A stretch of DNA of 64,000 nt from an uncultured Candidatus Saccharibacteria bacterium. GTDB lineage: Bacteria; Patescibacteriota; Minisyncoccia; Phycocordibacterales; UBA12445. This document shows positions 6,860 through 49,860 of the stretch, in pieces. Below the pieces are notes generated by a model. The model was not told where the DNA came from, made no database searches, and saw only the letters and a list, made by a program, of their open reading frames with translations. How positions within the stretch are numbered: position 1 is the stretch's first letter; the number at the start of each line of letters is the position of its first letter. The stretch covers positions 96,879 to 160,878 of the forward strand of contig CAZHDO010000001.1 in NCBI GenBank assembly GCA_964531375.1, given 5' to 3'. The position numbers and the translations under genes were made by a program.

Positions 6860-7087
6860 TTAGTCACCAATATATTTAAATCTCGGAATTTTTTCGCCAT
6901 TAATTTCGACATGCTCTGTGAACATGCTAAGTGGTCTTACCCAGATAGCGTTTGTTCCGAATTCTTTCGATTCATAGAGCGCTTTATAAACCACAAGCGA
7001 TTCTAGGGTTTCGCTATGGTGGGTGAGACCGATTACTTCATATTCTTTACCTTTGTAGTGTTTATATTTTCCGGGTTTTGGGAACAT
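6860..7087 (-). CDS. DUF1653 family protein
   Basis: YKHYKGKEYEVIGLTHHSETLESLVVYKALY...WVRPLSMF matches the DUF1653 pattern. Confidence 0.6.
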   Translation of the reverse strand: MFPKPGKYKHYKGKEYEVIGLTHHSETLESLVVYKALYESKEFGTNAIWVRPLSMFTEHVEINGEKIPRFKYIGD

Positions 7088-7094
7088 TGTTTTA

Positions 7095-7697
7095 TTATAT
7101 CTTCCTCGCGAAAATTTCCATGTGTCTTTTTGTTGTGAGACGATTGAATTCTATTATTTTAAAACCGTGATTTATGATTAGATTTTTAAAAGAATCTGGA
7201 GTAAGTCTTTTTTTGAGTATTTTAATAACATCAGCATCGTAAGCTTCGTAATCTTTTTCTTCGTCGCTTATTGCAGAGGTAATATAAAGAATACCCTCTT
7301 TTTTAAGTGAATTATTAAATATATTTAGAATGTCATCTTGCTCTGCGATAGAAATATGATGGAATACCGCCGAGCACCATATGCCGTCGTATTTTTTTTC
7401 TTTTGATAAATCTTTTAGGTTAAGAATCGCAAAGGCTGCTTTTGGGGCATATTTCTTTGAAAGCTTAATCATTTCCTCTGATCCATCAATACCAGTAACC
7501 GAGCAATTATTTTCAGATAAAAATTTTGAATCCTGGCCCCCGCCACAACCTGCGTCTAAAACATTGGCTTTGGGTGGAAGAAGGCCTAGGAACTTTTTTA
7601 GTGAAGGAAGTGCGTGGTGTTGGTCATAGCCAAATTTTTTAGCATATTCGTAAGCTGTTTCATTAAAGGCTTCTATGACTGTTTTTTGTTTTGTCAT
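7095..7697 (-). CDS. class I SAM-dependent methyltransferase
   Basis: VLDAGCGGGQDSKFL motif I (GxGxG). Confidence 0.8.
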   Translation of the reverse strand: MTKQKTVIEAFNETAYEYAKKFGYDQHHALPSLKKFLGLLPPKANVLDAGCGGGQDSKFLSENNCSVTGIDGSEEMIKLSKKYAPKAAFAILNLKDLSKEKKYDGIWCSAVFHHISIAEQDDILNIFNNSLKKEGILYITSAISDEEKDYEAYDADVIKILKKRLTPDSFKNLIINHGFKIIEFNRLTTKRHMEIFARKI

Positions 7698-7741
7698 GTT
7701 CTAGACATATTATCAAATTAATTTTAATTATAAAAATTTTT

Positions 7742-7856
7742 CAAGAGAGATTTGGTCATAGATAATTTTTCTGCGAAAAATTTCTACAACCCTGACTCAG
7801 CTTCCTTTCTTGTAGAAAGGGGCCCGCTTCCGTCTTTCGAATCTTGATTTTTGCGC
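7742..7856 (-). repeat. tRNA-3'-linked module, A-type (GGGCCCCTTTCTACAAGAAAGG core), distal copy downstream of tRNA-Ser(GGA)
   Basis: Minus-strand reading: CAAGATTCGAAAGACGGAAGCGGGCCCCTTTCTACAAGAAAGGAAGCTGAGTCAGGGTTG...GTGACCAAATCTCTC. Nearly identical to the cores at 22021-22075, 49640-49700 and 43300-43350(-). Confidence 0.8.
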
Positions 7857-7923
7857 TACAAAAATCATGTCGTAAGATTTCTGCAATAAAATTTCAAGAA
7901 ATTTACGACCAAACCTCTCGGCG

Positions 7924-7969
7924 CAACGACAAACCGTCTAAATGTTTGCACATTTAGACGGGTCGTTTG
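7924..7969 (-). terminator. hairpin between the two modules
   Basis: CAAACGACCCGTCTAAATGTGCAAACATTTAGACGGGTTTGTCGTTG: a long perfect inverted repeat. Confidence 0.5.
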
Positions 7970-8120
7970 CGGAGGGTGAGATTCGGCTTCGACTAAAATT
8001 TTCTTCCGAAAATTTTGTCTAGCCACCGCCTTGCTATTTTGTTCGCCAGATGCTCACAAAATTATAGCTCCAGCGTTCGAATCTCTCGCGCAGGCAAAGC
8101 AGTTTGCCTACTACCCTCCG
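7970..8120 (-). repeat. tRNA-3'-linked module, B-type (GCAAACTGCTTTGC loop inside a mirror copy of the tRNA 3' half), proximal to tRNA-Ser(GGA)
   Basis: Minus strand reads CGGAGGGT (rc of the acceptor 3' strand), then AGTAGGCAAACTGCTTTGCCTGCGC, then GAGAGATTCGAAC (rc of the T-arm). It ends with CCGAATCTCACCCTCCG, a direct copy of the tRNA 3' end. Confidence 0.8.
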
Positions 8121-8125
8121 TTCAA

Positions 8126-8151
8126 TAAAATCACCGCTTTTGGCGGGATTT
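8126..8151 (-). terminator. hairpin immediately 3' of tRNA-Ser(GGA)
   Basis: AAAATCCCGCCAAAAGCGGTGATTTT on the minus strand. Confidence 0.5.
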
Positions 8152-8159
8152 TAAACGAA

Positions 8160-8246
8160 CGGAGGGTGAGAGATTCGAACTCTCGGGGCGATTTCTCACC
8201 CACAGTCTTTCCAGGACTGCGCACTAGACCACTATGCGAACCCTCC
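8160..8246 (-). tRNA. tRNA-Ser (anticodon GGA), type II with long variable arm; CCA not encoded
   Basis: rc folds as acceptor GGAGGGT/ACCCTCC, anticodon arm CAGTC-CTGGAAA-GACTG, T-arm GAGAG-TTCGAAT-CTCTC, discriminator G. Confidence 0.8.
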
Positions 8247-8486
8247 AATATTATATTTTTTCTTTATCTTTTCTCTTTTATAACCTTTCTTATGTTCCTT
8301 TTCAATGACAACTGAATCTTTCTCGCTATCTGTTTTTGTTATTTCAAGAATTTTAAACGGTCTTCTTGATTTTGTGGAGGAAACTCTGCCATTGTTATGT
8401 TCAGATAACCGTCTTTCTAAATTATTGGTTCTGCCTATATAAAGTCCTTTGTCTTTATCGCTTTGAATTATATATATGTAGAACAT
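8232..8486 (-). CDS. GIY-YIG domain nuclease, small single-domain (COG2827/YhbQ-like)
   Basis: FYIYIIQSDKDKGLYIGRTNNLERRLSEHNNG contains the GIY...YIG...R...E...N motif order. The last 15 nt, including the stop, are the first 15 nt of tRNA-Ser. Confidence 0.75.
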   Translation of the reverse strand: MFYIYIIQSDKDKGLYIGRTNNLERRLSEHNNGRVSSTKSRRPFKILEITKTDSEKDSVVIEKEHKKGYKREKIKKKYNIGGFA

Positions 8487-8489
8487 TAT

Positions 8490-8545
8490 CGCACTGCTTT
8501 ACTAGACCCATGCCTGCCGGCAGGCAGGACTATGCGAACCCTTCA
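8490..8545 (-). repeat. partial duplicate of the tRNA-Ser(GGA) 5' segment, interrupted by a palindrome
   Basis: Minus strand: GAAGGGTTCGCATAGT, then CCTGCCTGCCGGCAGGCATGG, then GTCTAGT. Compare the tRNA 5' end GGAGGGTTCGCATAGTGGTCTAGTG. Confidence 0.65.
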
Positions 8546-8694
8546 ATATTTTAATACTATATACAAAATACTTGATACTTAATACTCGCTCAATAGGATA
8601 ATATAAATTATCTTTTATGCCAATAGCAGATTGAATATTTTAAAATGCTATAATATTTTTCAATATAGATATTGTTTGTTTAATTTAAATAAAA

Positions 8695-9102
8695 ATGGAT
8701 AAAATAATTTGGAAAATAGAATATAGCGTTGGTGTAAAGGAGATAGATGAACAACATCAGCACTTTTTCAGTGTTTTAAATGAATTGTATATATCTCAAT
8801 ATGCGAACAAAGAGAAAGAGTGGATGTTACATATTTTTGAACAGCTGGATGGTTACATAAGATTTCATTTTGCTACGGAAGAGAAATATTTTGATGAAAT
8901 AAAATATGAATATTCTGATCAGCATAAAAAGAGTCATCATGAGTTTATAAACAAAATAGAAAGTCTTAAGCAGGGTTTTGAGGACGGTAAAACAAATGTT
9001 GCTGAATCACTAGCAACTTATCTTGAAGATTGGTTTGTTAACCACATAGATAAGGCGGATAAAAAGTATACCGATATTTTTCACAAGAATAATATTTATT
9101 AA
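8695..9102 (+). CDS. hemerythrin-like metal-binding protein (bacteriohemerythrin)
   Basis: H-x3-H...E...H...H-x4-D ligand spacing: DEQHQHFF, HFATEEKYF, HKKSHHEF, NHIDKAD. Confidence 0.75.
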   Translation: MDKIIWKIEYSVGVKEIDEQHQHFFSVLNELYISQYANKEKEWMLHIFEQLDGYIRFHFATEEKYFDEIKYEYSDQHKKSHHEFINKIESLKQGFEDGKTNVAESLATYLEDWFVNHIDKADKKYTDIFHKNNIY

Positions 9103-9198
9103 TTTTTTAAAAATAACCTATTAATAGGTAGTGGAAAAATTCGGCTTGTTCGTGTTAGTATTAAATATACAGTTTATAAACAAGATAATTTAATAAAA

Positions 9199-9849
9199 AT
9201 GAGAGGATTTGATATTAAGAAGTCGGCAATCATTATTTTTACCATAATAGCGCTAGGGTTTGTCTTCTCTGATTATGTTATAAACCTAGATACAATCTTT
9301 GATAATTTTATGTCTGGTATCAGGACTGTGACAGGTATGAAATTTTTTGGTTGGCTAACTATTTTAGGTGATAAATATGTGATATCTTTTTTGGCTCTTG
9401 TTCTTACTTATTTTCTTTGGAGATTGCCACTATCGGGTTCTCGCTTTCTTCGGGTCTTTTGGATTTCCTTTTTGTTGGATGTGTCCACAGGCGCTGTTCT
9501 TAAATATATAGTAGGGAGAGATAGGCCACTCGGTGCTGAGGTATATGAGGGATTTACATATTCTTTTCCAAGCGGGCACGCAATCGCATCTATTTTCTTT
9601 TATGGTTTTATTGCGGTAGCTATGAATCGTCTAACAAAGATTGATATAAAATTAAAATATTTAACTAATTTTATTTGTTTTATTTTAGTTTTTTTAATTA
9701 GTTTTAGTCGCCTATATCTAGGTGTGCATTATTTAAGTGATGTTGTCGCCGGACTTGCAATCGGATGGTTTTGGTTGAATACAATTTTGTATTTTACGAG
9801 AGATATACAAATAGAAAGAAAAATTAATATTGTCAACGTAAAATCTTAG
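9199..9849 (+). CDS. PAP2 family phosphatase (undecaprenyl-diphosphatase-like)
   Basis: KYIVGRDRPL, SFPSGHA and SRLYLGVHYLSDV, the three PAP2 motifs. Multiple TM helices. Confidence 0.85.
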   Translation: MRGFDIKKSAIIIFTIIALGFVFSDYVINLDTIFDNFMSGIRTVTGMKFFGWLTILGDKYVISFLALVLTYFLWRLPLSGSRFLRVFWISFLLDVSTGAVLKYIVGRDRPLGAEVYEGFTYSFPSGHAIASIFFYGFIAVAMNRLTKIDIKLKYLTNFICFILVFLISFSRLYLGVHYLSDVVAGLAIGWFWLNTILYFTRDIQIERKINIVNVKS

Positions 9850-10009: not shown

Positions 10010-12334
10010 ATGCCAGAGGAAAAGAAAATAATAAAAAGGAAGCCGGCAAAAATGCCAACGAAGATAACGAAGCGAGATGGGACTTCAGTCGATTTTGATA
10101 TAAATAAAATAACCAATGCAATTGCAAAGGCCATGGAGGCCTCTGGTGAAGGTAAGGAGGAGGACCTTAGGTATGTTGCGCACTCGGTTGTAAAAGAAAT
10201 CACACAAGTGATGAATGATGAAAAGGGATATATACCTACTGTTGAAGATGTTCAAGACGCGATTGAGAACGAGCTCATTATGATGAGTTACCCAAAAACA
10301 GCGAAAGCTTATATTCTTTATCGAGAGAAAAGAGCTGAGGCAAGAAGACACTCAGGTGTTGTTGTTCATGAGGAGGTTAGAACACTAGTCACGGAGAGTA
10401 AAAAATATTTTAGAAACGCATTGTCTGAATTTGTTTACTATAGTTCATATTCAAAATGGTTGCCTGAAAAAAGTAGAAGAGAGACATGGCTAGAGACTGT
10501 TGGAAGGTATATTGATTTTATGAAGGAGAATCTTGGCAAAAAATTAACGGATGCTGAGTACGAAGAGATACAGGATTATATGTTATCAATGAAGACGCTT
10601 GGTTCGATGAGACTTTTGTGGGCCGCCGGTAGAGCTGCAAAGTCGACAAACGTTGCTGCTTATAATTGTGCTTTTATCGCTCCGAAGTGTTGGCGAGATT
10701 TTGGAGAGATGATGTATGTTCTTATGTGCGGTACTGGGATTGGTTTTTCAGTTGAGAGACAGAATGTCGAAGTCCTTCCAATTATCAAAAGACAAACAGG
10801 AAAGAAATTACCAGTACATACTGTTCTCGATAGTAAGGAGGGTTGGGCAGACGCCTTGATTCTTGGTTTAGATACCTGGGCAGAAGGAGGAGATGTTGAT
10901 TTTGATTATTCTCAAGTAAGACCTCAGGGCTCAAGACTTGCAACTATGGGTGGTAGGGCTTCTGGTCCGGAACCATTGAAGGCTCTTTTGGATTTTTCAA
11001 GAAGCCAGATGATGTTAAGACAAGGAAGACATCTCACAACTGTTGATGTGCACGATATAATTTGCAAGATAGGGGAGGTTGTTGTTATGGGGGGTGTAAG
11101 AAGAAGTGCTTTGATATCTCTTTCGGAGTTAGATGATCCAGAGATGAGAGATGCTAAGAACGGTCAATTCTACTTATCGCACCCAGAAAGAAGCATGGCT
11201 AATAATTCAGTTGTATATAGCGAAAAGCCAACTGCGACACAATTTTTAGAAGAATGGATTAGCTTAATGAAGTCTGGTTCGGGAGAAAGAGGTATTTTTA
11301 ATAGAGGCAGTCTTTCAAAACAAATGCCAGAAAGAAGATGGAAGGTCTTTGAGAAAGATGCTGTTGATTCAGGAATAAATCCTTGTGGAGAAATTATTTT
11401 GAAATCAAAACAGTTTTGTAATTTGAGCGAAATCGTAGCCAGAAAAGAAGATACAGAAAAAACACTTCTTGATAAAGCAAGAATTGCTGCGATATTAGGA
11501 ACATACCAGGCAACCTTAACGAAGTTTCCGTATCTTTCTAGAGAGTGGAAAAAGAACTGTGAAGAAGAAGCCCTGCTTGGGGTTTCTATAACAGGACAGT
11601 GGGATTCAAAAGTTGTAAGAAATCCTAAGGTTTTGGAGAAGATGAGAGAGGTTATTGTTGAAACAAATAAAAAGTATGCAAAGAAGTTTGAGATAAATCC
11701 CGCAACGGCCGCCACTTGTGTAAAGCCTTCGGGAAATGGTTCACAACTTTTTGACTCCGCATCTGGTTGTCATCCTAGGCATTCAAAATATTACATAAGG
11801 AGGGTTAGAGTAGAGAATCATAATCCACTTTTTATGATGTTGAGAGAAATGGGTGTTCCACACCAGCCAGAAGTTGGGCAAGATGAAAGTAATGCAAAAA
11901 CATACGTATTGGAATTTCCTATAAAATCTCCAGATGGCGCAATTGTTAAAAACGACCTTTCGGCTATAGATCAACTAGACTACTGGAAGATTTTAAAAAC
12001 ACACTACACAGAACATAACCCTTCAGTCACAATTTCCGTAAGCAATGATGAGTGGCTTAAAGTTGGTAGTGCAGTTTATGAAAATTGGGATATGATTGGC
12101 GGACTTTCCTTTTTACCTAGAGATGAACATGTATACAGACTCGCTCCGTATGAAGAAATAACTGAAGAGGAATACAAGAAGAGGGCCGCTGCATTTCCAG
12201 AAATAGATTTTTCTAAACTGGTTTTGTATGAGTACAATGACCAAACTAAAGGTTCTAAAGAATTGGCTTGTACAGCTGGTCTTTGTGAAATAGAACCACC
12301 AACAAGTGTTTCTGGGGATAAAAGTAAGGAATAG
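10010..12334 (+). CDS. nrdJ: ribonucleotide reductase with N-terminal ATP-cone; class II (adenosylcobalamin-dependent) type inferred
   Basis: ATP-cone KITKRDGTSVDFDINKITNAIAKA. The large RNR catalytic region has an active-site Cys-containing NPCGEI segment. Class assignment is by overall architecture only. Confidence 0.7.
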   Translation: MPEEKKIIKRKPAKMPTKITKRDGTSVDFDINKITNAIAKAMEASGEGKEEDLRYVAHSVVKEITQVMNDEKGYIPTVEDVQDAIENELIMMSYPKTAKAYILYREKRAEARRHSGVVVHEEVRTLVTESKKYFRNALSEFVYYSSYSKWLPEKSRRETWLETVGRYIDFMKENLGKKLTDAEYEEIQDYMLSMKTLGSMRLLWAAGRAAKSTNVAAYNCAFIAPKCWRDFGEMMYVLMCGTGIGFSVERQNVEVLPIIKRQTGKKLPVHTVLDSKEGWADALILGLDTWAEGGDVDFDYSQVRPQGSRLATMGGRASGPEPLKALLDFSRSQMMLRQGRHLTTVDVHDIICKIGEVVVMGGVRRSALISLSELDDPEMRDAKNGQFYLSHPERSMANNSVVYSEKPTATQFLEEWISLMKSGSGERGIFNRGSLSKQMPERRWKVFEKDAVDSGINPCGEIILKSKQFCNLSEIVARKEDTEKTLLDKARIAAILGTYQATLTKFPYLSREWKKNCEEEALLGVSITGQWDSKVVRNPKVLEKMREVIVETNKKYAKKFEINPATAATCVKPSGNGSQLFDSASGCHPRHSKYYIRRVRVENHNPLFMMLREMGVPHQPEVGQDESNAKTYVLEFPIKSPDGAIVKNDLSAIDQLDYWKILKTHYTEHNPSVTISVSNDEWLKVGSAVYENWDMIGGLSFLPRDEHVYRLAPYEEITEEEYKKRAAAFPEIDFSKLVLYEYNDQTKGSKELACTAGLCEIEPPTSVSGDKSKE

Positions 12335-49574: not shown

Positions 49575-49860
49575 TAAATGGCCCACTTAAATTTGAAAAC
49601 ATTTAAGTGGTTCGCCATTTTAAGAGGCGAGAGGATTTGAAGGACGGAGTCGGGCCCCTTTCTGCAAGAAAGGGAGACGAGTCGGGGTCGAACAAAATTT
49701 TCGTAGAAAATTTATGTGTGACCAAATCCTCCCGCCTCCGCAGGAGTTTGAAAGCAATTTTAAATTGCTTTCAAAAAGAGGATTTGAAGCCTGATTGAGC
49801 ATTTTTTGTCTGTAAGATTCAAATCCTCCACTGGTGGTTTTGAAAGTTAACAGTAAAATT
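49575..49860 (+). repeat. tRNA-3'-linked modules (hairpin, A-type, hairpin, C-type) downstream of tRNA-Ser(CGA)
   Basis: Hairpin CCACTTAAAT...ATTTAAGTGG. Then GAGGATTTGAA (rc of the T-arm), GGACGGAGTCGGGCCCCTTTCTGCAAGAAAGGGAGACGAGTCGGGGTCG...GTGTGACC, then CAAATCCTCCCGCCTCCG, a direct 3' copy. Then hairpin GAAAGCAATTTTAAATTGCTTTC. Then GAGGATTTGAAGCCTGATTGAGCATTTTTTG...ATTCAAATCCTCC. Confidence 0.85.

Follow-up and report, generated by a model that had tools for sequence, protein, structure and literature searches.

A putative homing-type cassette of a minimal GIY-YIG nuclease gene and a palindrome-split tRNA copy at tRNA-Ser 5' ends in Patescibacteria

By analogy, the nearest functional precedent for the locus described here would be SegB of phages T4 and T6. 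[quoted passage not shown] SegB is statistically associated with tRNA genes in phages. The subject of this report is a locus in a 64-kb stretch of a Patescibacteria metagenome-assembled genome (contig CAZHDO010000001.1; the whole stretch, 64,000 nt with a GC content of 34%, is hereafter the window), where the gene for an 84-amino-acid GIY-YIG protein lies between an intact tRNA-Ser(GGA) gene and a partial copy of the same tRNA split by a short palindrome (PAL). With a probability that we put at roughly 0.6, this locus is one copy of a small homing-type mobile cassette that occupies the 5' end of tRNA-Ser genes while keeping the tRNA intact. It looks like a selfish element that is apparently undescribed.

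Several known systems share part of this design. Like the cassette, SegB is encoded by a GIY-YIG gene among tRNA genes and spreads together with its neighbouring tRNA genes, and its tandem tRNA-nuclease repeats parallel the arrays that we found in three related loci (L018, L024 and L179). SegB is, however, a phage protein of the I-TevI-like branch with an extra DNA-binding region, whereas the cassette protein is smaller, falls in another GIY-YIG clade and matches the I-TevI-like branch more weakly. The cassette is also chromosomal in Patescibacteria and tied to tRNA-Ser 5' ends, and its palindrome-split partial tRNA copy is a feature not reported for SegB loci. The mobA/gene 60 'hop' cassette of T4, which Bonocora and colleagues are said to have described in 2011, reportedly joins a homing endonuclease gene to a short structured insertion in the adjacent target gene, the two moving as one cassette and the insertion interrupting the nuclease target; there the insertion interrupts a protein-coding gene and ribosomes bypass it, whereas here it is a dead tRNA copy that holds the palindrome, the working tRNA being uninterrupted. 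Integrative elements that target tRNA genes rely on a tyrosine or serine recombinase and restore the tRNA, and the part of the gene that they duplicate is nearly always the 3' one. They resemble the cassette in inserting in or at a tRNA gene and in leaving a partial duplicate beside a complete surviving tRNA, but the cassette has no recombinase, duplicates the 5' part and measures about 330 nt in all. Finally, REP/REPIN sequences with their RAYT transposases, palindrome-associated elements derived from IS200/IS605 and the GC clusters of yeast mitochondria are presumed to owe their movement to an enzyme acting in trans. PAL is likewise short, GC-rich, dispersed between genes and sometimes nested, but it is only 20 nt long, has a low copy number and, far from being species-specific, is the same in hosts of 31-71% GC; no association of PAL with an HUH transposase was seen, although no systematic survey was made.

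On the minus strand of the window the locus runs from a copy of tRNA nucleotides 1-16 through the palindrome, a copy of nucleotides 17-27 and the open reading frame (ORF) to the intact tRNA-Ser(GGA) (Table 1). An initial annotation of this DNA had proposed the same order of partial tRNA copy, GIY-YIG ORF and complete tRNA-Ser, and ARAGORN (8159-8247, minus strand), Rfam (tRNA, 8160-8246, minus strand, 52.2 bits), Pfam and direct reading all agree with it; direct reading likewise confirms that a palindrome interrupts the partial copy, the break falling between nucleotides 16 and 17. Upstream of the start codon, the minus strand reads AATATT-GAAGGGTTCGCATAGT-CCTGCCTGCCGGCAGGCATG-GGTCTAGT-(8-nt insertion)-GCG-ATA-ATG. 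Some details required revision. The 21-mer quoted as a perfect palindrome is imperfect, with a perfect core of only 16 nt (TGCCTGCCGGCAGGCA), and the 20-mer PAL of the window is one base off the family consensus, CCTGCCTGCCGGCAGGCAGG. The duplicated target, estimated at about 25 nt, extends over about 33 nt, from position -6 of the flank through tRNA nucleotide 27. The ORF does end within tRNA nucleotides 1-15 and takes its TAG from them, but these nucleotides supply its final four codons (GGA GGG TTC GCA, GGFA) plus the stop rather than five. The 22-nt repeat AATATTGRAGGGTTCGCATAGT is present in exactly two copies in the window (8231-8252 and 8529-8550; 0 expected in 100 shuffles), and PAL is present once, with 0 copies expected by chance.

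Homologues of the protein were sought in one genome per species across 185,579 species genomes by a peptide-pattern search that is not exhaustive, and 51 loci were found. Of these, L001-L036 encode close homologues (51-65% identity) in Saccharibacteria, Paceibacterota, Magasanikbacteria, Taylorbacteria, Nomurabacteria, Wolfebacteria, Adlerbacteria and Sungiibacteriota; one of them, L032, stops at a contig edge, leaving 35 assessable. In all 35, a tRNA-Ser gene with anticodon GGA, GCT or TGA begins on the same strand between -40 and +102 nt from the ORF stop, and in each complete cassette the ORF is preceded by a partial copy, split by PAL, of the tRNA-Ser at that locus. PAL is located exactly between nucleotides 16 and 17, in the D-loop just 5' of G18 G19, in about 30 of the 35, with exceptions after nucleotide 8 (L004) and nucleotide 9 (L023); a PAL is nested within PAL in L015, L029 and L048, and PAL is joined by CAGG in L033. 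The duplication usually starts at tRNA nucleotide 1 or at most 5 nt away. Its left arm (nucleotides 1-16) has 0 mismatches to the resident tRNA in most loci, its right arm extends from nucleotide 17 to nucleotides 23-42 (7-26 nt), and the distance from PAL to the start codon is 12-34 nt. The cassette is a three-part unit of about 330 nt with a constant internal order in 35 loci, and the palindrome-split fragment is a conserved and selected part of it, not the simple target-site duplication of a single event. ORF-tRNA overlap at other tRNAs without a duplicate, which the initial annotation would have held against an insertion, is not what these genomes contain: the other loci carry a duplicate matching their own tRNA-Ser. 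The overlap itself is incidental, because the gap between the two genes is so variable and because the TAG depends on the D-arm of the tRNA, an in-frame TAG being supplied only by tRNAs with the D-arm sequence GCATAG (with resulting C-termini GGFA, GGVA, RGFA and GEVA).

Comparison among these loci, and with a relative that lacks the cassette, argues for movement. In L224, the closest relative found by identity of its ribonucleotide reductase (RNR; 85%), the tRNA-Ser(GGA) gene differs from that of the window at only two variable-arm positions, a compensatory pair, and shares with it the trailer TTCGTTTAAAATC...GCGGTGATTTTATTGAA, yet ORF, PAL and fragment are all missing upstream, as in an empty site. 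Among L008, L017 and L019, nucleotide similarity begins at fragment nucleotide 1 and ends at the tRNA 3' end, with unrelated flanks on both sides. The protein tree groups partly by isoacceptor, and within it the isoacceptor has switched between L011 (TGA) and L023 (GGA), between the window (GGA) and L004 (GCT), and between L006 (GGA) and L014 (GCT). Truncated or decayed copies are found in L005, L028, L036, L048 and L049. In addition, there are ORF-less mini-copies that consist of PAL, nucleotides 17-26, about 42 nt and nucleotides 1-16, located at the 16|17 position of an intact tRNA. One is present in L024 and absent from the syntenic L022; others are in L018 and L179, where fragment-PAL units flank the ORF on both sides, and the L179 mini-copy is recognisable as a cassette from which the ORF has been deleted. 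Occupied and unoccupied versions in relatives, a sporadic distribution, unrelated flanks and degenerate copies are what is expected of a homing gene, and insertion or homing, as the initial annotation had it, is supported by the empty site and the unrelated flanks, if not as one event with a simple duplication of the target.

Within the cassettes, PAL is better conserved than the sequence on either side of it. Its column identity is 97.7% across the 35 cassettes, against 76% and 71% for the flanking tRNA-derived arms, and it is identical at 20 of 20 positions among L008, L017 and L019 despite a synonymous divergence (dS) of about 1. The 5' arm (positions 1-8) is invariant in all 35. All 12 arm changes are in the 3' arm, and 11 of these are C>T (C13>T in ten loci of several clades, C17>T in L018), changes that keep G.U pairing on the ORF-sense strand only; no compensatory double change was found across the 35 cassettes. 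PAL is thus constrained in sequence, and the asymmetry of its changes, any formal test of which is weakened by kinship among the loci, suggests that its active form is a hairpin of the single-stranded ORF-sense strand, as RNA or as non-template DNA. Folding of the leader displays the PAL hairpin, with a whole-leader stability no better than that of shuffled sequences (z = -0.66). We envisage PAL as a required cis element, a hairpin in the mRNA leader or in non-template DNA, which could mark the boundary of the cassette, could break up the direct repeat of 16 plus about 20 nt so that it is neither a target nor a deletion substrate, or could be the binding site for a structure-specific nuclease.

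The assignment of the protein to the GIY-YIG nucleases is borne out by a match to Pfam PF01541 over residues 1-76 (56.7 bits against a cut-off of 22.6, E=3.1e-15). Y16, G18, R26, E29, H30, E62 and K66 are invariant in the 51 homologues, and Y5, R25 and N31 are nearly so; the invariant set takes in the catalytic Tyr, Arg, Glu and His positions. The AlphaFold2 model (pLDDT 91.4; strands and helices E2-9, E15-20, H23-32, E44-52, H55-66 and H68-77) has the beta-beta-alpha-beta-alpha-alpha arrangement of the GIY-YIG fold, and its significant Foldseek matches (E<=0.02, ranks 1-9) are GIY-YIG domains without exception. The best superpositions are with BH0048 and SLX1 (TM 0.6-0.7, rmsd 1.8-2.7 A, about 70 residues for SLX1); the fit to I-TevI and UvrC is clearly poorer, with E of about 0.3 for the I-TevI-like branch. 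By sequence, the best relatives in the PDB are the UPF0213 proteins BH0048 (1zg2, E=7e-11) and EF2693 (1ywl, 5e-9), followed by the SLX1 nuclease domain (1e-5). Neither Pfam nor the AlphaFold2 model reveals a second domain, whether a DNA-binding module or a RING/zinc finger, in the 84 residues. Judged by sequence and predicted structure, the protein is a member of the UPF0213/Slx1-like clade of the GIY-YIG superfamily reduced to the catalytic domain, with a predicted endonuclease activity. It may work like the nuclease domain of SLX1, but it is no SLX1 orthologue, because it is a single 84-aa domain that has no C-terminal RING/zinc finger; eukaryotic SLX1 has this RING-type finger and needs SLX4, and both are absent here.

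The ORF is under strong purifying selection, with a ratio of nonsynonymous to synonymous divergence (dN/dS) of 0.02-0.1 in seven pairs, dS being about 1 among L008, L017 and L019. When a profile of the close family was run against 1.84 billion representatives, 14,491 clusters matched at E<=1e-3 and 1,920 at E<=1e-10, so the wider family is large. A tblastn search of 50,697 phage records (E<=1e-4) returned no match to the protein, the PADLOC defence models gave insignificant matches only, nothing in NCBIfam exceeded its cut-off, and the matches in PHROGs were to generic endonuclease families. The stand-alone UPF0213/YhbQ proteins have the same fold and catalytic motifs in a bare domain of about 80-100 aa, but they have neither an assigned function nor a described genomic context; to our knowledge, this has been so for about 20 years since structures were solved. 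The cassette would give this minimal GIY-YIG clade a testable function and a candidate natural substrate.

In the homing scheme that we favour, the cassette would comprise a dead copy of tRNA-Ser from nucleotide 1 to about 27-40 split by PAL, a short leader, and an 80-84-aa nuclease gene that abuts or overlaps nucleotide 1 of the intact tRNA. The nuclease would break an unoccupied tRNA-Ser gene in or next to the part encoding the D-loop, and repair from an occupied copy would use the tRNA sequence as homology, with nucleotides 1-16 as the left arm and 17-88 as the right; an equivalent description is a single crossover within nucleotides 1-16. The outcome would be a copied-in cassette with a complete tRNA regenerated downstream. 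Because the homology arms would be tRNA sequence, landing in unrelated flanks and switching among serine isoacceptors would both be possible. SLX1-type nucleases cut branched or hairpin DNA rather than long sequences; a similar preference would suit the 20-nt palindrome, or tRNA-gene DNA that forms a cloverleaf, as substrate, and would account for site recognition by a bare 80-aa domain. Such a compact design of about 330 nt would let a selfish gene occupy an essential tRNA gene without damage and cross between genomes using the tRNA as homology. It would also document mobile-element traffic in Patescibacteria, whose reduced genomes are, as far as we know, usually thought poor in mobile elements.

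The junction can be described in two ways, both of which fit the sequence. Either a PAL-b-ORF-a unit (a being nucleotides 1-16 and b nucleotide 17 onward) was inserted at 16|17, which amounts to the single crossover just mentioned, or an a-PAL-b-ORF unit was inserted immediately 5' of the tRNA; the two models yield identical sequence. In L019, fragment nucleotides 17-38 are closer to the tRNA type of L008 and L017, its relatives, than to the resident tRNA, and in L012 the fragment as a whole differs from the tRNA-Ser(TGA) that resides there. In at least these two loci, the fragment appears to have travelled with the ORF instead of being copied from the resident tRNA. Elsewhere the fragment matches host-specific bases (GGAGAC in L008, for example) despite dS of about 1, a pattern that fits repeated homing with tRNA homology arms, selection at the level of the element for matching arms, or gene conversion.

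Several observations weigh against a homing cassette. The empty site of L224 is outside the syntenic neighbourhood, with only PAP2-RNR in common; the genes around its tRNA are rearranged, so it is not a perfectly syntenic empty site. An empty allele within the species was not found, the same-strain contigs L099-L101 (with an identical hemerythrin neighbour) all being occupied. The tandem arrays could have arisen by unequal crossing-over instead of re-insertion. The protein is a bare catalytic domain and has no separate sequence-specific DNA-binding domain of the kind that classical GIY-YIG homing endonucleases use for long targets, and the occupied allele retains an intact target in the downstream tRNA, so that self-cleavage is not obviously avoided. 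The low dN/dS and mostly intact ORFs exceed what a purely selfish, decaying homing gene usually shows, and such strong selection could mean a benefit to the host. That the fragment is nearly identical to the resident tRNA even at dS of about 1 requires repeated re-homing, gene conversion or selection, and because the fragments of L012 and L019 resemble the tRNA of another host, the junction cannot be assigned to 16|17 over -1|+1. Finally, the neighbour-joining tree of this 80-aa protein, on which the isoacceptor switches are read, is weakly resolved.

PAL is also found far from any cassette. The exact sequence CCTGCCTGCCGG[C/T]AGGCAGG (Y at position 13) occurs in 47 viral-contig stretches (L052-L098) and at least 120 metagenome stretches (L102-L181 among these), over a GC range of 31-71%. 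Among the matches listed, only three also have a GIY-YIG homologue: L093, with PAL in the D-loop of another tRNA; L171, in tRNA-Asn between nucleotides 10 and 11; and L179, in tRNA-Ser. The other listed PALs are solitary and intergenic, such as that between rpsB and tsf in L129, and there are sometimes several per contig (six in IMGVR_UViG_3300037242_000417). Solitary PALs lie inside the centre of another PAL (L145, L146, L150, L152), in tRNA loops (the variable loop of tRNA-Met in L082 and, in L159, the T-loop and anticodon hairpin of dead copies of tRNA-Ala), at the tips of other hairpins, and between imperfect direct repeats. The idea that they are always found in hairpin loops or with target duplications was rejected, since such sites are only an enriched minority: flanks can pair into a stem of 7 bp or more at 8% of solitary PAL sites against 1.1% of random positions, and direct repeats of 7 nt or longer are present at 15% against 3.4%. 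With the C13>T variant as strand marker, the orientation of solitary PALs relative to flanking genes is 8 versus 4. Around the cassettes of the candidate phyla radiation (CPR), five further solitary PALs lie in 191 kb, four of them at most 550 nt from the ORF, compared with none in 183 kb of other CPR-like DNA.

PAL is the part of the cassette furthest from anything described. Its sequence was not found in the literature searched, nor did the searchable literature hold a description of the GIY-YIG/tRNA-Ser/palindrome arrangement or of a link that ties UPF0213/YhbQ/COG2827 proteins or SLX1 to palindromes or tRNAs. It is conceivable, if on balance improbable, that a hairpin-based mobile system exists of which PAL is the smallest member and the tRNA-Ser cassette the autonomous form, in which the Slx1-like nuclease would recognise single-stranded hairpins or cruciforms (PAL itself, loops of tRNA genes, terminator loops) and PAL-led segments would be pasted there. 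The solitary PALs of unrelated bacteria and phage-like contigs would then be non-autonomous copies moved in trans, and the orphan UPF0213 family, with its 14,491 clusters, would gain a function, its members serving as nucleases for mobile elements of a new, structure-targeting class. A 20-nt palindrome that hardly varies and that is present in the cassette as well as on its own in widely differing genomes merits study in its own right.

Whether this dispersal means that PAL is foreign to the cassette has to be weighed against its behaviour within it. On one account, two things are superimposed: a GIY-YIG gene was inserted with a partial duplication, and PAL is an independent, self-spreading hairpin parasite that prefers loops and has no function in the cassette. 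The many PALs without a nuclease, and their taste for loops of hairpins, tRNAs and other PALs, are as this account predicts, and other dead tRNA copies (L159, L040, L041, L046, L171) carry different GC-rich hairpins. A parasite of this kind would hardly be present in every complete tRNA-Ser cassette, at the same inter-nucleotide position in most, with a conservation far above that of neutral sites in the same cassettes; nor would it be expected to begin the mini-copies or to cluster as solitary copies around the cassettes and not in other CPR-like DNA. We regard superposition as unlikely. Similarly doubtful, to our minds, is a domesticated host module, that is, a vertically inherited nuclease-tRNA-Ser operon, currently immobile, whose fragment-PAL segment would be a tRNA-mimicking 5' leader that couples expression as a riboregulator or processing signal. 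The purifying selection on both ORF and PAL would be natural for such a module, as would an RNA hairpin behind the strand asymmetry of PAL and a fragment that continues to match the resident tRNA; synteny is conserved in the pairs L022/L024 and L034/L035, and a tRNA-Cys gene lies about 2.3 kb upstream in six loci. Vertical inheritance is contradicted, however, by a rare and patchy distribution, by the occupation of three isoacceptors with switches in the tree, by closely related cassettes in unrelated flanks, by the empty site in the closest relative found, and by truncated and ORF-less copies. A leader function, for its part, would have to accommodate a right arm and a distance to ATG so variable that no leader fold beyond PAL can be conserved, and a folding stability that shuffled leaders equal.

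The remaining alternatives we consider much less probable. Since tRNA genes are classical integration sites that are restored by the duplicated segment, and each of the two tRNA-Ser genes of the window is followed by a piece that closes with a copy of the 3' end of the tRNA, the locus might be what is left of an integrase-mediated island at tRNA-Ser, mostly deleted, with the GIY-YIG gene as left-over cargo. This is very unlikely: no tyrosine or serine recombinase gene is present near the window locus, where the neighbours within about 3 kb were identified, the 5' rather than the 3' part of the tRNA is duplicated, and a unit of about 330 nt with the same internal order in 35 loci is unlike a random deletion remnant. 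The split or permuted tRNA that the initial annotation had offered as its alternative, with the upstream piece as a functional 5' half joined to a 3' half as RNA, has in its favour only that a 5' tRNA fragment lies on the same strand, and it scarcely deserves consideration now that the downstream tRNA (87 nt) proves complete and scores as a normal class II tRNA. The upstream piece has no orphan 3' half to join, its end varies from nucleotide 23 to 42 among loci, and the G2>A change of the window fragment would mispair with the acceptor 3' strand.

Beyond the close homologues, the association with tRNA genes persists. Among the 15 distant homologues (L037-L051; Bacteroidota, Marinimicrobia and CPR), 13 are within a few hundred nt of a tRNA gene, here for His, Glu, Gln, Pro, Ala, Val, Met or Ser. 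Of twelve loci tested (eleven distant homologues and L171), six have a significant partial tRNA copy, disabled by a hairpin, across the ORF or beyond the tRNA. L046 has a 5' tRNA copy in which CCGCCttaGGCGG takes the place of the anticodon arm, L040 and L041 have 3' copies with arms replaced by TCCCGCC..GGCGGGA and TCCCGACttttaGTCGGGA, L038 has a 3' copy plus trailer, L044 has a PAL-like insert in the T-arm, and L171 has PAL together with another hairpin. In general terms, the nuclease gene is flanked on one side by an intact tRNA and on the other by a partial copy that a hairpin has broken.

The coordinates of the features at the window locus are collected in Table 1.

Table 1. Features at and beside the tRNA-Ser(GGA) locus of the window, with the evidence for each
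Feature	Position	Strand	Basis
AATATT, copy of the 6 nt preceding the intact tRNA (8247-8252); left edge of the duplication	8545-8550	-	22-nt repeat
Left arm of partial copy, tRNA-Ser nt 1-16, GAAGGGTTCGCATAGT, G2>A	8529-8544	-	direct reading and locus comparison
PAL, 20-nt palindrome between tRNA nt 16 and 17; CCTGCCTGCCGGCAGGCAtG on the ORF strand, consensus ends ...CAGG	8509-8528	.	only copy in the window
PAL as read on the minus strand, CCTGCCTGCCGGCAGGCATG	8528-8509	-	direct reading
Right arm of partial copy: tRNA nt 17-24 (GGTCTAGT) at 8508-8501, 8-nt insertion plus GCG (nt 25-27) at 8500-8490	8490-8508	-	direct reading; equivalent arms in 35 other loci
ATA and start codon after the right arm	directly 3' of 8490	-	direct reading
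Putative GIY-YIG nuclease ORF, 84 aa, predicted catalytic domain only, UPF0213/Slx1-like; stop TAG 8234-8232 inside the tRNA	8232-8486	-	Pfam, homologues, model, purifying selection
Intact tRNA-Ser(GGA), 87 nt, class II, long variable arm	8160-8246	-	ARAGORN, Rfam
ORF-less element 3' of the tRNA; neighbour of the cassette, membership in the cassette not shown	7970-8127	-	repeat analysis; no Rfam match

Genes within about 3 kb of the locus are those for hemerythrin, PAP2, RNR, a methyltransferase, DUF1653 and an M48 peptidase. An Rfam scan of window positions 7000-9500 (E<=1) matched the tRNA alone, with nothing for the fragment-PAL leader or the downstream element, and the same scan of six related loci (E<=0.1) returned tRNAs only. 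A scan of the locus for promoter and terminator consensus sequences gave no decisive promoter. The TATAAT in codons Tyr-Asn (8255-8250) was rejected as the tRNA promoter, as it ends 3 nt before tRNA nucleotide 1; with it dropped, co-transcription of ORF and tRNA is something that we infer.

Pieces of about 117-160 nt without an ORF lie 3' of both tRNA-Ser genes of the window (7970-8127, minus strand, and 49624-49740, plus strand), in L224 (797-913), and in L008, L010, L014, L015, L021 and L022. They consist of an inverted and then a direct copy of the 3' end of their own tRNA (the 3' half of the T-loop plus the acceptor strand), with ends that can pair over about 19 bp. The element at 7970-8127 opens with the inverted copy (GGAGGGT[25-nt hairpin insert]GAGAGATTCGAAC) and closes with the direct one (GAATCTCACCCTCCG). 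A core, GTCGGGCCCCTTTCTG[A/C]AAGAAAGGGAGACGAG, is common to the L224 piece and the window piece at 49624, and the L224 piece is located between the tRNA and the trailer that in the window directly follows the tRNA, as an insertion at the tRNA 3' end would be. Neither Rfam nor ARAGORN makes a call on these pieces, and the identities tmRNA, SRP RNA, 6S RNA and tRNA-Sec were rejected for the downstream element, which has no such call and no G3:U70 pair or proper T-arm. The 3' piece could be a second kind of mini-element that targets tRNA-Ser, or a tRNA-like RNA of no known type.

In several of these pieces the inverted copy is split at the acceptor/T-stem junction by a GC-rich hairpin (AGTAGGCAAACTGCTTTGCCTGCGC at 8096-8120 of the window, minus strand; TCCTGCCCCTGGCAGGA in L008; equivalents in L010 and L015), and in three loci the same split is made by PAL (L014 at 3438, L021 at 3429, L022 at 3543). 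The insertion of hairpins into repeats derived from tRNAs appears to be a general feature of these genomes. Just past the second downstream piece of the window, at 49778-49829 (plus strand), a hairpin GAGGATTTGAAGCC...AGATTCAAATCCTC is built from inverted T-arm halves of tRNA-Ser(CGA). The 1.4-kb contig L159 (1-1360) holds two tRNA-Ala genes and repeated dead 3' copies with several GC-rich hairpins: TCCCGACGTACGTCGGGA in place of the anticodon arm, two in the T-loop and one before the acceptor strand, with PAL at the tip of the first hairpin in one copy. In the viral contig L093, 3' of the PAL and GIY-YIG cassette (822-980), a tRNA copy is normal up to the anticodon-loop position and then diverges, with no ARAGORN call; this tRNA may contain an intron. 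L045 has two tandem GIY-YIG ORFs of the family of the cassette nuclease (1431-1940), the first ending at about 1660 and the second at 1691-1940.

The repeat also has consequences for annotation. In L101, an independent assembly of the same strain, position 1 corresponds to window position 8218, so the contig break falls precisely on the inner end of the duplicated stretch of tRNA, and the repeat therefore disrupts short-read assembly. Gene calls differ as well: the nuclease gene is uncalled in the ENA copy L100, and in some database proteins, P0031 among them, the ORF call is over-extended through the palindrome (...CLPAGR...). Elsewhere in the window, the class II RNR (10010-12334) has a Vogelbacteria homologue, P0301, of 1,115 aa with matches to PF14528 and PF14890, which we take to be intein/LAGLIDADG-type domains and which are absent from the window RNR and the other listed RNR homologues.

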